Numbered from the stretch's first letter, positions 19,234 to 23,795 are shown. The stretch is 29,460 nucleotides of DNA from an uncultured Acidimicrobiaceae bacterium (GCA_964383515.1 CAYLIR010000001.1:1-29460); one strand, 5' to 3'. Program-made: numbers and translations. Notes: generated by a model from the sequence alone, not told the origin.

Positions 19234-19311
19234 TGGTGGGCCTACCTGGATTTGAACCAGGGACCTCATCCTTATCAGGGATGCGCTCTAACCAGGCTGA
19301 GCTACAGGCCC
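19234..19311 (-). tRNA. tRNA-Ile(GAU)
   Basis: GGGCCTGTAGCTCAGCCTGGTTAGAGCG CATCC-CT-GAT-AA-GGATG AGGTCCCTGGTTCAAATCCAGGTAGGCCCACCA: full cloverleaf with encoded CCA. Confidence 0.97.
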
Positions 19312-19343: not shown

Positions 19344-20690
19344 TCAATCGGCAGGGGCATCGGCGCTCTGATCGATGCGGTCCCGGTACCAGTATCCGGA
19401 GTCCTTGATCGTCCTTGCTTGTGTGGAGTGGTCGACGTGCACGAGCCCGAATCGTTGGGCGAAGCCGCTCACCCACTCGAGGTTGTCGAGGAAGCTCCAT
19501 ACGAAGTAGCCGTCTACGGGGATCCCTTCCTGTCGGAGAGACTCGACTTGTGCGATGTGGCTGTCGAGATAGTCGATGCGTCGCGTGTCGTGAACACGGC
19601 CGTCGGGCGATGGCCCATCGGAGAACGATGCCCCGTTCTCGGTGACAACGATCGACGGCGGCTTCCATTCGGTATGGACCCTGCGAAGGAACGCGCCAAG
19701 CGCGTCGGGGTCGATCCTCCAACCCATCTCGGTGTAACCGGGCACAGCAGGAGCACCGACAGGCCCCTCGGTGGCCTCGCGTTCCGCGACGGTCGAATCG
19801 ATCAGGAGCGACGTGTAGTAGTTGATGCCACAGAAGTCGACGGGCGCAGCGATCATGTCGGTGTCTCCTGGGAGTATCAATCCTTCTGGCATCGTGCCCG
19901 ACTCGGTATAGGCGGCAACCATGTCTTGTGGATACCCCTTGCCGAAGACGGGGTCGAAGAACCAGCGGTTGCGGAAGCCGTCGAAGTGCCTCGTTGCCGC
20001 GATGTCGGCTGCGCTGTCACTCGCTGGCAGCGCAGGACGGCAGTCCAAGGCGATACCGATCTGTGCGTTCGGGACAGCGTCGCGCAGGATGCGCGTCGCC
20101 GCTCCATGGGCAAGGAGTTGGTGGTGCGCTGCCCTGAGTGCTGTAGCGAAGTCCTGTTCGCCAGGAGCGAAGATGCCGTCGCGGTATCCCAGGAACGAAG
20201 CGACCCAGGGTTCGTTGATGGTGATCCAGTTGTTGACCCGGTCGCCAAAGCGATCGGCCATGAGTTCCGTGTACTCGGCGAACCAGTGCACGGACTCTCT
20301 GACAGGCCATCCACCTGATTCGTGGAGTATCTGGGGCAGGTCCCAGTGGTACAGGGTCAGCCACGGTGTGATGCCTCGTGCGAGGAGACCGTCGACCAGC
20401 CTGTCGTAGAAGGCGAGTCCTGCTGGGTTCGGCTTGCCGATGCCTTCGGGAAGGACGCGGGCCCAAGCTGTAGAGAAACGGTACGCGTCGACGCCGAGGT
20501 CCGCCAGGAGGTCGAGGTCGGTGTCGAGACGGTGGTAGTGGTCACAGGCGACATCGCCGTTGGGCGTCGTTTGACGCTCATGGAAGAACCTGTCCCAGAT
20601 CGACTCGCCTTTGCCTTCGCTACACCATGCACCCTCGATCTGATACGCCGATGTGCCTACGCCCCAGGTGAATCGCTCAACGTGTCCCAT
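19344..20690 (-). CDS. Beta-glucosidase, glycoside hydrolase family 1
   Basis: FTWGVGTSAYQIEG, ACDHYHR, YRFSTAW, TLYHWDLP, TINEP (acid/base), TENG (nucleophile) and WSFLDNLEW. Confidence 0.96.
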   Translation of the reverse strand: MGHVERFTWGVGTSAYQIEGAWCSEGKGESIWDRFFHERQTTPNGDVACDHYHRLDTDLDLLADLGVDAYRFSTAWARVLPEGIGKPNPAGLAFYDRLVDGLLARGITPWLTLYHWDLPQILHESGGWPVRESVHWFAEYTELMADRFGDRVNNWITINEPWVASFLGYRDGIFAPGEQDFATALRAAHHQLLAHGAATRILRDAVPNAQIGIALDCRPALPASDSAADIAATRHFDGFRNRWFFDPVFGKGYPQDMVAAYTESGTMPEGLILPGDTDMIAAPVDFCGINYYTSLLIDSTVAEREATEGPVGAPAVPGYTEMGWRIDPDALGAFLRRVHTEWKPPSIVVTENGASFSDGPSPDGRVHDTRRIDYLDSHIAQVESLRQEGIPVDGYFVWSFLDNLEWVSGFAQRFGLVHVDHSTQARTIKDSGYWYRDRIDQSADAPAD

Positions 20691-20793: not shown

Positions 20794-21966
20794 GTGAACG
20801 TGTCAGATGCGAGCGTTGTTCAACGCGCAGGCACGGTTCATCCACCCGATGCCCTGACCGACTCCCTCGAACGGTCGATGCGCAGCCTCGTCATGATCAT
20901 GCGAGGCCTCGGGTGGTTCTGGATGCTCCTTCTCGTGGTCGCCACCTTGATGACAGACAGTGGTGCTCATCGGGGTATCACCATCGGAGCTATGGCTCTG
21001 GCGACCGTCTGGACCGCTGTCACCTGGTGGGCCTACCAGGAGCGGTCGCGGCTCGGCTCGGTTTGGTTCATGGTGGCAGACGGGGTCGTATGCCTTCTCG
21101 TTGCTGGAGCGTCGTACGCAGCGAACGCAGGAGACCTGTTCCATGGCGGCTATCCGATCTCGTGGATAGCGGTGCTCGCCTATGGGGGCGGGTTGCGGTG
21201 GGCGCTTGCTGGCTCGCTGTTGCTCGCTGGCCAGCAGGCTGCGCTGCTGCTCGATAGTGGCCGTAGCATGGTATCTGCCATTGGCAGCATCGTGTTCCTG
21301 ATCTACGCGCTCATCCTTGGCTGGCTGTTCACCGTCATCCGCACCTCTGACAGGGATCGTAGACAGACCGTTGCCCAGTTGATGGTGGAACGGGAGGAGA
21401 ACGCACGGCGGCTCGAGCGGCTCGAACTGGCGAACAGGCTCCACGATTCTGCCCTCCAGACGCTCCAAGTCATAGATACCGACGCCGACGACCCAGACAG
21501 AGTGCGATCCCTCGCGCGACGCCAGGCCAGAGATCTGCGCAACCTCGTCGAGCGGTACGCAGACGACCAGTGTGCTTCGTTCAACGAGTGCCTCAGCAAC
21601 GCGATCGGCATGGTCGAAGAGCTCTTCACGGTGAAGATCAGTGCTGTTGTGAGAATCGACAGCCCGATGACTGCGGCGCTCCATGCGCTCGTTGCATCTG
21701 CTCGGGAAGCGATGACGAACGCAGCCAAGTATGCCGGAACAGAGCAGATCGACGTGTACGCCGCCGTTGAGGAAGGGAGCGCAACGGTGTACGTTCGCGA
21801 CGATGGCGACGGGTTCGCTATCGATGATGCAATACTCGGCCATGGAATCGAGCGGTCGATCCGATCGAGGATCGCTGCTGTGGGAGGCACCGCAGAGATC
21901 CTCTCTGCTCCTGGCAGCGGCACAGAGGTCATCTTGAAGATCGCCGTCGAGGAGCGTTCCCCATGA
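20794..21966 (+). CDS. Membrane sensor histidine kinase (HisKA_3/NarX-type H-box)
   Basis: About 5-6 TM segments, H-box LHDSALQTL, EAMTNAAKYAG, VRDDGDGF and SAPGSGT. Start uncertain (GTG 20794 or 20800). Confidence 0.9.
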   Translation: MNVSDASVVQRAGTVHPPDALTDSLERSMRSLVMIMRGLGWFWMLLLVVATLMTDSGAHRGITIGAMALATVWTAVTWWAYQERSRLGSVWFMVADGVVCLLVAGASYAANAGDLFHGGYPISWIAVLAYGGGLRWALAGSLLLAGQQAALLLDSGRSMVSAIGSIVFLIYALILGWLFTVIRTSDRDRRQTVAQLMVEREENARRLERLELANRLHDSALQTLQVIDTDADDPDRVRSLARRQARDLRNLVERYADDQCASFNECLSNAIGMVEELFTVKISAVVRIDSPMTAALHALVASAREAMTNAAKYAGTEQIDVYAAVEEGSATVYVRDDGDGFAIDDAILGHGIERSIRSRIAAVGGTAEILSAPGSGTEVILKIAVEERSP

Positions 21967-22607
21967 CAACATCGCCACGGCTCGTACTCGTCGATGACCA
22001 CGACATCCTTCGTGCAGGCGCAGCGAAGTTCCTTGGTGACTGTTTCAGCATCGTCGGTGAGGCCAGCGACATCGCTGAAGCGATCGAGGTCATCACGTCG
22101 GTCGAGCCAGACGGCGTGCTCCTGGACGTACGGTTGCCGTCGGGCACCGGCGATGCAGTCGTGACCGCTGTCAAGGAGGCAGGTTCGAAAGCCCGATTCC
22201 TCGTGCTCTCCGTCTCTGCGAAGCGGGCTGATGTTGTGAGGATGCTGCACGCCGGTGTCGACGGATATCTGCTCAAGAGCACGCTCGGCGACCAACTTTG
22301 CGGCCTTGTCACCGAGATGCTCGAGGGTGGACGTCCCATCTCACCCCAGATCGCCGGCTTCATGCTTGATATCGATGAGGCGGCAGAGACCGCTCCCGGC
22401 ATCGAGAACCTCACACCTCGAGAGCGCGAGGTTGTTCAGTACATTGCGCGGGGCTTCTCGTACAAGAGGGCAGCGGAGGCACTGTTCGTATCGGTCAAGA
22501 CGGTGGAGACCCACATGGGCCACATCTTCCACAAGCTCGGAGTTGCGAGTCGGTACGAGCTCGCCATGCGCGCGTTCGAGTCGGGGTTCCTCACCGAAGA
22601 GACATGA
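21963..22607 (+). CDS. NarL/LuxR family response regulator
   Basis: LVDDH, LLDVRLP (phospho-Asp), GYLLK and LTPREREV...VSVKTVETH HTH. ATGA overlap with the kinase. Confidence 0.95.
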   Translation: MTTSPRLVLVDDHDILRAGAAKFLGDCFSIVGEASDIAEAIEVITSVEPDGVLLDVRLPSGTGDAVVTAVKEAGSKARFLVLSVSAKRADVVRMLHAGVDGYLLKSTLGDQLCGLVTEMLEGGRPISPQIAGFMLDIDEAAETAPGIENLTPREREVVQYIARGFSYKRAAEALFVSVKTVETHMGHIFHKLGVASRYELAMRAFESGFLTEET

Positions 22608-22704
22608 GGCACGGCGACGGCAGCTTGGACAGGGGCGGCGCCGCAGTGTGATTTCAGGGATATCCCCTATGGCGCCGTCGCCTCAGATGGTCCACAATCA
22701 CGTT

Positions 22705-22836
22705 GGAGCTTGACGGGTCCGGCCTGTGACCGAACTTTCAGCCGACAGCTTGGAGCAAGGGAGGATCCTAGCTGGCTCGGTAGGGCGGGCGGCATCAGTA
22801 TTGGTTACAGGCCATCAGGGGGACCCGGCAAGCTCC
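22705..22836 (+). ncRNA. Candidate rod-shaped ncRNA (6S-like architecture)
   Basis: GGAGCTTG-A-CGGGTCC pairs GGACCCG-G-CAAGCTCC. GGCCTGTGACC pairs GGTTACAGGCC. An asymmetric central bubble is followed by apical GCCGA-CAGCT-T-GGA / TCC-T-AGCTG-GC-TCGGT. CACAAT lies 6 nt upstream and TCTTCTT downstream. Confidence 0.5.
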
Positions 22837-23168
22837 TCTTCTTGTGTTCGAGATCGGTACGTGGGGCAGGGCACACCATGGCAAGGATCCCGGGCAGCGT
22901 CCGCTACGACGGTGAGCCCCCATTCGGATACAAGCCGCGGCCTCAGGCGATGCTGAGAACCACAGGGTCAGTGCGGGCTGTTGGCGCACAGCTGCCAAGA
23001 CCAACACCTTGGTTGTGCTGTTGTCGCGATGGCGCCTGATCCCTCCGTGTGCCCCGCTTGGGCACTGCGACGCGTGAACGCCGGCGTGTGGTCTCGCAAG
23101 AAAGTGGGCCGTGTGCGGTCGACGGCTGGCTACTCTGCCATACACACCCACAGTTGAGAGGCTCGTCA

Positions 23169-23630
23169 ATGACCCAATGGATCGTCGTATTACATGTGAT
23201 GGCTGGCGCCGCCTGGTTCGGAGGCCAGGTATATGTGGAGGGCCTGATGGCCTCAGCTGCACGCACGGAGGACGCAGGAGCGACGTTCGCTATCGCGCGG
23301 GCTGTGGGAAAGACCAGTGTCAGGGTGTTCTCCGTCTCTGGGCTCGTGCTCCTCATCTCCGGTGTGTTGATCGTTCTCGATTCGTCGACGCAGTACCGCT
23401 TCGAGGACCTGTTCGTCTCTATCGGGTTCCTGGTTGTGCTCATCGGCCTCGGTGTCGCCCTGTTCTACTTCAAGCCAAAGGGTGGTGAACTCAGGGCCGT
23501 GGTCCACGAGCAGGGCCCGGCAAGCTCGGATGCTGCTGCGTTGTTGAAGCAGGTCTCGATGGTGAGCCATATCATGACGCTTCTCGTGGCCATCGCTCTC
23601 GTGGTCATGGTCCTCAAGACAGTCGTCTAG
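23169..23630 (+). CDS. DUF2269/CopD-like four-TM membrane protein
   Basis: LHVMAGAAWFGG, four hydrophobic helices and C-terminal LVVMVLK. SD GAGAGG precedes ATG 23169. Confidence 0.7.
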   Translation: MTQWIVVLHVMAGAAWFGGQVYVEGLMASAARTEDAGATFAIARAVGKTSVRVFSVSGLVLLISGVLIVLDSSTQYRFEDLFVSIGFLVVLIGLGVALFYFKPKGGELRAVVHEQGPASSDAAALLKQVSMVSHIMTLLVAIALVVMVLKTVV

Positions 23631-23722: not shown

Positions 23723-23795
23723 GGGGACGTAGCTCAGTTGGGAGAGCACCTGGTTTGCAACCAGGGGGTCGTCGGTTCGAGTCCGATCGTCTCCA
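23723..23795 (+). tRNA. tRNA-Ala(UGC)
   Basis: GGGGACGTAGCTCAGTTGGGAGAGCA CCTGG-TT-TGC-AA-CCAGG GGGTCGTCGGTTCGAGTCCGATCGTCTCCA. CCA not encoded; TACACT -10 box at 23706-23711. Confidence 0.97.

Follow-up and report, generated by a model that had tools for sequence, protein, structure and literature searches.

The intergenic element at 22705-22836 of the window, by which we mean the whole 29,460-nt stretch of DNA analysed here from an uncultured Acidimicrobiaceae bacterium, is very probably a genuine small-RNA gene and, judged by comparison with its relatives, represents a well-supported and previously undescribed RNA family of uncultured marine Acidimicrobiia. Since the RNA always lies just after a kinase/regulator gene pair and its promoter looks built for that regulator, it is probably the output of this two-component system. 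The account we lean towards, with moderate confidence, is that of an independently transcribed sRNA that would be activated by the response regulator and would act in trans on a partner. The features of the region are the following:

20878..21966, + strand: sensor histidine kinase gene (Pfam HATPase_c; membrane-embedded N-terminal region)
21963..22607, + strand: NarL/LuxR-type response regulator gene (Pfam Response_reg and GerE (HTH)), immediately 5′ of the RNA
22485-22532: recognition-helix region of the regulator, residues ~175-190
22653..22670, no strand: 18-bp dyad TTCAGGGATATCCCCTAT, a conserved island and putative binding site of the response regulator
22693..22698, + strand: -10-like hexamer CACAAT, with A2 and T6 in 29/29 loci
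22705..22836, + strand: structured small RNA, 132 nt (fold, covariance models R1 and R2, pair counts)
22837-22850, + strand: pyrimidine-rich 3′ tail TCTTCTTGTGTTCG; most family members have a Y-rich tail after the stem
22818..23075, - strand: remnant of a degraded convergent MFS transporter gene (tblastn with the intact G008 protein)
23169..23630, + strand: DUF2269 membrane protein gene (Pfam DUF2269, E 1.5e-5, just below cut-off; syntenic)

An earlier note on this DNA had described the element as a 132-nt rod, and its fold agrees: the + strand reaches a minimum free energy of -72.8 kcal/mol against a dinucleotide-shuffle mean of -49.6 (z -6.33), with none of 200 shuffles as stable. The - strand is less stable at -60.3 kcal/mol, the rod being nonetheless very stable on both strands. 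Within the RNA we distinguish these parts:

22705-22712 with 22829-22836, + strand: helix P1 (fold)
22714-22720 with 22821-22827, + strand: helix P2 (fold)
22721-22731 with 22803-22813, + strand: helix P3 (fold)
22732-22745, + strand: 5′ junction strand, conserved YUCAG
22746-22774, + strand: hairpin P4, covarying within genus g6
22775-22790, + strand: hairpin P5
22791-22802, + strand: 3′ junction strand
22814-22820, + strand: 7-nt 3′ bulge AUCAGGG, invariant columns in the genome-derived alignment

The 26-bp interrupted closing stem that had been proposed is confirmed as the sum of P1, P2 and P3, its interruptions being one unpaired base and the 7-nt 3′ bulge; P1 and P2 are continuous in genus g6. 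Beyond P3, the window's RNA folded as a single sequence opens into a large asymmetric unpaired region closed by an apical hairpin. The asymmetric bubble and apical stem of the original description are thus fair for one sequence, but the relatives refine them to a junction that holds P4 and sometimes P5. The single strands of this junction are conserved (5′ YUCAGAC; 3′ GCGAC-RCCAGCAC, the latter less so in the window's own subgroup), and between them stands the variable, covarying hairpin P4, to which several clades add P5 as a short second hairpin. Across the family the apical stem spans 8-10 bp and the apical loops vary, while the conserved single strands measure 5-8 nt.

The sequence CAGGGGG, contained in a WUCAGGGGG stretch that spans the bulge, is invariant in 17/17 genome-derived sequences. 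The pooled 29-sequence alignment (A4) holds no variant of the motif either; its metagenome rows, however, came from a pattern search that demands the motif and so provide no independent test of invariance. The bulge AUCAGGG is the best candidate for a contact with a partner. The 26-bp rod and the tail TCTTCTTGTGTTCG together form a likely, non-canonical transcript end. The pyrimidine tract reported to follow the 3′ end is indeed there, and in g6 it is weakly U-rich. A simple terminator scan raised no flag at the 3′ end of the RNA, as expected given that a terminator of this kind would have a giant loop.

Using BLASTN, the element was found in 7 of the 9 genomes of the same genus, and these sequences served to build the covariance model R1, later followed by R2. 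Covariance model searches placed the RNA in 8/9 genomes of g1, 8/11 of g6 and 1/10 of g8, with one copy per genome, and R1 returned no RNA in the other 27 of the 30 genera of the family. The R2 search of ~130 further genomes of the order and ~150 genomes of the class gave nothing new; ~22 candidates were scored per genome, so that weak relatives in the order or class could be missed. A pattern scan yielded 14 loci from Acidimicrobiia MAGs plus 16 metagenome contigs, marine sediment included, bringing the pooled set to 29 distinct sequences. One further genome of g6 (G061, loci L028 and L071) gave a weak model hit with an E of 0.007 and has a fragment resembling the kinase N-terminus directly 5′ of DUF2269; the kinase-regulator-RNA module may be degraded or rearranged there.

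Pairing is retained throughout this set. Standard pairs make up 98.3% of cells in the 29 distinct sequences, compared with at most 52% in slid-register controls, and compensatory changes on both sides occur at 16 of the 26 pairs, a result that none of 500 shuffles equalled. G-U pairing had been said to favour the + strand, and so it does across the whole family (71 G-U/U-G cells versus 6 A-C cells); model scores point the same way, with 113-146 bits on the + strand versus ~32 on the - strand. We rejected a coding gene: members of the family (124-142 nt) differ in length by amounts indivisible by three, and whichever frame is read, many of them contain stops. Pairing, G-U excess, model scores, lengths and closed frames together identify a structured non-coding RNA on the + strand, one that combines compensatory pairs and strand-specific G-U with the lack of a conserved reading frame. 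The comparison of relatives by BLASTN and covariation, which had been suggested as a check, therefore came out in favour of the element, and the idea of a conserved non-coding RNA of a novel kind is upheld, no Rfam family matching it.

The genes upstream are the constant company of this RNA. In 17/17 genomes whose flanks were checked, kinase, regulator and RNA follow one another in this order on a single strand, and in the window the RNA starts 97 nt 3′ of the regulator stop codon. The kinase ORF is open from 20653, and its product is a distant MacS relative that falls outside the named family (NCBIfam MacS, NF047322, 101 bits against a cut-off of 300); the best NCBIfam match of the regulator is NarL, at 128 bits and below cut-off. 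Kinase orthologs of at least 53% identity adjoin the RNA, with one exception: G008 has a further copy on a contig that stops short of the RNA site. On this short contig (G008:C287, L098) there is a second kinase/regulator pair, with identities of 50% and 61%, which may come from another organism given the 7% contamination of G008. Two tRNA genes flank the region at 23723-23795 (+) and 19237-19311 (-), with 70 bits each in Rfam, and the kinase gene and a GH1 glycosidase gene at 19344-20690 (-) are divergently oriented.

Downstream, the neighbourhood is less uniform. The 560-nt gap between the regulator and DUF2269 genes (22608-23168) had been called gene-free; it has no intact gene, but it does hold the fragments of the MFS gene. 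The remnant, which belongs to the context and not to the RNA, is internally deleted and frame-shifted, matching residues ~11-65, 322-345 and 404-427 of the intact gene in several frames, and at this position eight other g1 genomes have an intact convergent MFS gene of 427 aa, followed by DUF2269. In G008 the MFS reading frame enters the 3′ arm of the RNA by ~20 nt. We considered DUF2269 as a constant partner of the RNA and rejected it, for its homologs in g13, g8 and g11 sit away from the two-component system. With synteny universal for the three other members and DUF2269 separate elsewhere, the constant unit is kinase, regulator and RNA. The spacer between the RNA 3′ end and DUF2269 has tandem repeats in some genomes: CAGATGC occurs six times in G070 (L023:908-949), and the spacers of G069, G066 and G014 (g6) have three to four copies of (T)CAGGNN, these 7-8-nt repeats varying between species. 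Some of the g6 spacer repeats look like the TCAGG found both in the dyad half-site and in the RNA bulge.

Upstream regions of the RNA are variable save for two conserved islands, the dyad and the hexamer. The -10-like CACAAT, pointed out in the earlier note as lying 6 nt upstream, stands firm: its family variants (CACAAT, GAAACT, GATAAT, GAAGAT) all conform to NANNNT, as do all 29 loci. The dyad follows one of two consensus forms: g6 and the window's subgroup have ATCAGGG-N4-CCCCGAT, G137 and the other subgroup of g1 have ATAGGGG-N4-TCCCTAT. In 29/29 distinct loci it keeps exactly 22 bp to the hexamer; the stem, by contrast, begins anywhere from 5 to 9 nt after the hexamer (6 nt in the window), which ties the dyad to the promoter and not to the RNA. 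Placed exactly 22 bp 5′ of the hexamer, with its centre ~43.5 bp before the first base of the RNA, the 18-bp dyad overlaps the -35 position, and no -35 hexamer exists upstream of the RNA. A simple sigma-70 scan accordingly found no full promoter there, as would be expected for a promoter of the activator-dependent type that lacks a -35. The putative promoter is thus the RNA's own and consists of a degenerate -10, no -35 and a dyad 22 bp upstream. The features expected of a response-regulator-activated sRNA, namely its own promoter, a palindrome over the -35 and a sigma-A-type -10, are present at the level of the sequence.

Does the dyad belong to the adjacent regulator? The recognition helix and the dyad change together: across 17 genomes, SVKTVETHM goes with the ATCAGGG dyad and, in G137 and the g1 subgroup concerned, SPKT(I/V)EAHM with its ATAGGGG counterpart; G004 is an exception, in which an SVKTVETHM helix is found with an ATAGGGG left half-site. 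This pattern, which rests on a single evolutionary split, is consistent with a link between regulator and dyad. Since the helix and dyad types group G137 with a g1 subgroup, the phylogeny of the module departs from genus labels. A genome-wide search of the window's own genome (G000) for further dyads returned chance-level near matches only. As RNA, the dyad could also form a 7-bp hairpin at the end of the regulator mRNA; the fixed hexamer spacing and a conserved A/C mismatch disfavour such a reading.

Related loci in two other genera widen the picture. Second-tier kinase/regulator pairs occur in other genera, with 41-47% identity for the kinase and 52-56% for the regulator. Behind the g11 regulator gene come a near-perfect ATCGGGG-N4-CCCCGAT dyad and, exactly 22 bp away, a NANNNT hexamer; these precede another conserved RNA, distinct from that of the window, which is ~150 nt long and closes with a strong terminator hairpin that covaries. 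By BLASTN this RNA occurs in 17/21 genomes, and 16/16 loci examined show both the dyad and the core motif (L099:1500-1714 in G121, L112 in G019, L107 in G112 and 13 more). It has a GAGAG/CUCUC closing helix and an invariant core, GCCGCACGGACCCGG ... CCGGGACGGGGGGAGCGGA. No Rfam family matches it, and R2 does not recognise it even with filters off; what it has in common with the RNA family of the window are short G-rich motifs only, ACGGGGGGA versus UCAGGGGGA. In the g23 genome G031, a similar dyad, GTCGGGAACATCCCCTAT, follows a related regulator gene at L093:2216-2233 with a poorer hexamer, ~75 nt before a gene for a 496-aa MFS transporter (L093:2309-3796, one genome), so that here a protein gene seems to be under the direct control of this promoter type. 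The g11 and g23 loci support the dyad as the probable operator of this regulator family, and they also support the view that small RNAs may be recurrent products of its promoters.

Put together, the favoured account would run as follows. The dyad would serve as operator for the NarL-type response regulator whose gene lies just upstream; upon signals from the membrane-embedded kinase, the regulator would activate the promoter in a class II activator manner. The closed rod may shield both ends of the RNA from exonucleases and, with the pyrimidine tail, may end the transcript, while the bulge and the junction strands would engage a partner in trans, be it an mRNA or a protein. The invariant residues reside in the bulge and the junction, outside the exposed hairpin loops, an arrangement less typical of base-pairing sRNAs.

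The same promoter could instead work in cis, driving DUF2269 with the rod as a structured 5′ leader or conditional terminator. We find this unlikely, although the gene order of some genomes invites it: g6 and G137 have no MFS gene, and DUF2269 lies directly downstream of the RNA there, co-directional and 65-127 nt away, with a g6 tail that has no clear U-tract. Since that tail is weakly U-rich and the next gene runs in the same direction, read-through is possible in g6. The g11 RNA, too, ends in its terminator before a co-directional small gene. However, the small gene of g11 has conserved promoter-like elements of its own (-35 TTCCAC, -10 TACCGT), and the spacer between RNA and DUF2269, itself not conserved, contains separate -10-like and SD elements. 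In g1 the convergent MFS gene (degraded in G000) stands between RNA and DUF2269 and yet the structure is still kept by compensatory changes, and DUF2269 homologs exist in other genera without either the RNA or the two-component system.

We judge it equally improbable that the rod just forms the 3′ part of the kinase-regulator operon, as a long terminator, insulator or mRNA-stabilising hairpin with no separate function as RNA. Its position soon after the regulator stop, the stability of the rod on both strands, the convergent genes of g1 and the overlap of an MFS frame with the 3′ arm would all suit such an element. But a bulge of 7 nt, junction strands and a size of 130 nt are not things that terminators keep from genus to genus, selection on one strand only is evident from the G-U bias, and g6 has no convergent gene. 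Also at odds with it are the conserved dyad and -10 hexamer, which stand a fixed distance apart in the stretch from regulator gene to rod.

A more specific possibility, and one to which we give little credence, is that the RNA binds a protein of the signalling module, either as a decoy that gives feedback on the response regulator or by sequestering some other RNA-binding protein. A closed rod whose internal bulge does not vary is typical for an RNP RNA, and here the rod is closed, its internal bulge invariant and its apical loops variable. Moreover, the UCAGGG of the bulge repeats the operator half-site TCAGGG (22654-22659), and the g11 RNA carries the invariant ACGGGGGGA (motif CGGGGGG) alongside a TCGGGG half-site. 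It is this coincidence of letters that prompts the decoy hypothesis, and it may be due to chance: the matches are of 5-6 nt and were noticed post hoc, with ~0.04-0.4 chance matches expected in an RNA rich in G+C. The g1b half-site is TAGGGG while the bulge is still UCAGGG, and HTH domains that bind structured RNA would be unusual. We regard as a long shot the broader proposal that the RNA is no ordinary base-pairing sRNA but an RNP partner of the system, whether as an operator mimic that titrates the regulator or as a miniature polymerase-binding RNA switched by the system.

The polymerase brings us to the 6S-like, RNAP-binding character that had first been ascribed to the element. The Rfam check recommended at that time (6S, SRP) was run and produced no family match: at gathering score Rfam 15 recognises only two tRNAs in the window and nothing at the RNA, and at E<=10 (sequences of 701 nt and 151 nt) only chance low-score matches such as NRF2_IRES and snoRNAs appear. 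The remark that the element is neither SRP RNA nor tRNA holds, the SRP RNA of the genome (RF00169, 62.7 bits) being on contig C165 and none in the window. A Y RNA or YrlA was likewise considered and set aside, G000 having no TROVE domain (Ro) and Rfam no match.

We consider it very unlikely that the element is a miniature RNA of the 6S/Ms1 type, one that would mimic an open promoter and thereby bind RNA polymerase. The outline of the RNA does recall 6S, with its 26-bp closing stem, a bubble or large unpaired centre and an apical stem, and the role is formally vacant, no canonical 6S being detectable in G000 or 60 relatives of the order. This last silence carries little weight, because the RF00013 model applied to these 61 genomes also missed the Corynebacterium control. 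RF00013 has no match to the RNA at gathering score or at E<=10. The shortest known 6S is ~160 nt (range ~160-200 nt) and Ms1 is ~300 nt, and specialists have excluded RNAs <150 nt as 6S/Ms1 candidates (PMC9130861), whereas members of the present family stay within 124-142 nt. Their apical stem, at 8-10 bp, falls short of the length needed to imitate upstream promoter DNA, and the junction often has a second hairpin. Nor is the distribution of the broad housekeeping type known for 6S/Ms1, which spans a phylum or order, with 3/30 genera of the family and 0/~280 other genomes sampled in the order and class. Confined to three genera, with an activator-type promoter and always tied to one two-component system, the RNA is the opposite of a housekeeping regulator of RNAP, and the 6S-like label should be dropped.

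A MITE or another dispersed palindromic repeat, which the long terminal inverted arms might suggest and which the earlier note named as an alternative, is excluded by copy number: the element is single-copy in the G000 assembly (2.08 Mb, 94.8% complete), each relative has one syntenic copy, target-site duplications are lacking, as was noted from the start, and compensatory changes and G-U bias indicate selection at the RNA level.

These results would amount to a new structured RNA family, one that Rfam 15 lacks, with strong covariation support, and the literature searched contained no regulatory RNA described for the uncultured, mostly marine-sediment Acidimicrobiia. Comparison alone defines a compact module of three parts, sensor kinase, NarL-type regulator and small RNA, together with the probable operator of the regulator and the geometry of its promoter, and in so doing makes an orphan two-component system directly testable. 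The g11 RNA suggests that RNA outputs recur in this kinase/regulator family. Should the function prove to be protein binding rather than base pairing, the finding would be considerably more unusual, and if the RNA were an RNP partner of its system, the g11 RNA would point to a wider class of kinase-regulator-RNA signalling modules.

Among known systems, 6S/Ms1 resembles the present RNA in having paired ends, a large unpaired centre and an apical helix. The RNA described here is shorter, with an apical helix of 8-10 bp and often a second hairpin, lacks a model match, is narrowly distributed and has a promoter that appears to be of the activator-dependent type.

An analogy in regulatory logic is offered by the GacA-dependent RsmY/RsmZ, where a NarL/FixJ-family regulator, a palindromic upstream box and a dedicated small RNA constitute the output of the system. 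Rsm RNAs sequester CsrA/RsmA through repeated GGA loops, and their genes are not adjacent to gacA; CsrA is generally lacking in Actinomycetota. Both cases would have the palindromic box of a NarL-type regulator before a dedicated small RNA, but the RNA described here is without a repeated loop motif and its gene adjoins that of the regulator.

For the kinase, the nearest named family is MacRS of Streptomyces (NF047322), a NarL-type system, and the alignment covers almost the full length. The kinase differs in scoring well under the family cut-off. The known direct targets of MacRS are membrane proteins and lipoproteins, and the review of that system gives no sRNA target of MacR (PMC9739842).

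A precedent for the predicted promoter is that of DrrS (MTS1338) from M. tuberculosis, which is activated by DosR, a NarL-family regulator whose promoter-proximal site overlaps the -35; DrrS has a single DosR site in this position, in a class II-like arrangement, and a degenerate -10 (PMC5360333). The two RNAs differ in that they have no sequence or model similarity (no Rfam match), that the RNA here is a closed rod with both ends paired and that its gene is fused to the two-component operon in every genome, its regulation being predicted. They are alike as actinobacterial sRNAs of ~100-130 nt in each of which a terminal stem is thought to give stability, and they have in common a degenerate -10 and a site for a NarL-family regulator over the -35, predicted here from sequence only. 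Even the distances agree: the 3′ edge of the dyad is ~35 bp before the start, compared with a DrrS site 34 bp upstream (PMC5360333).
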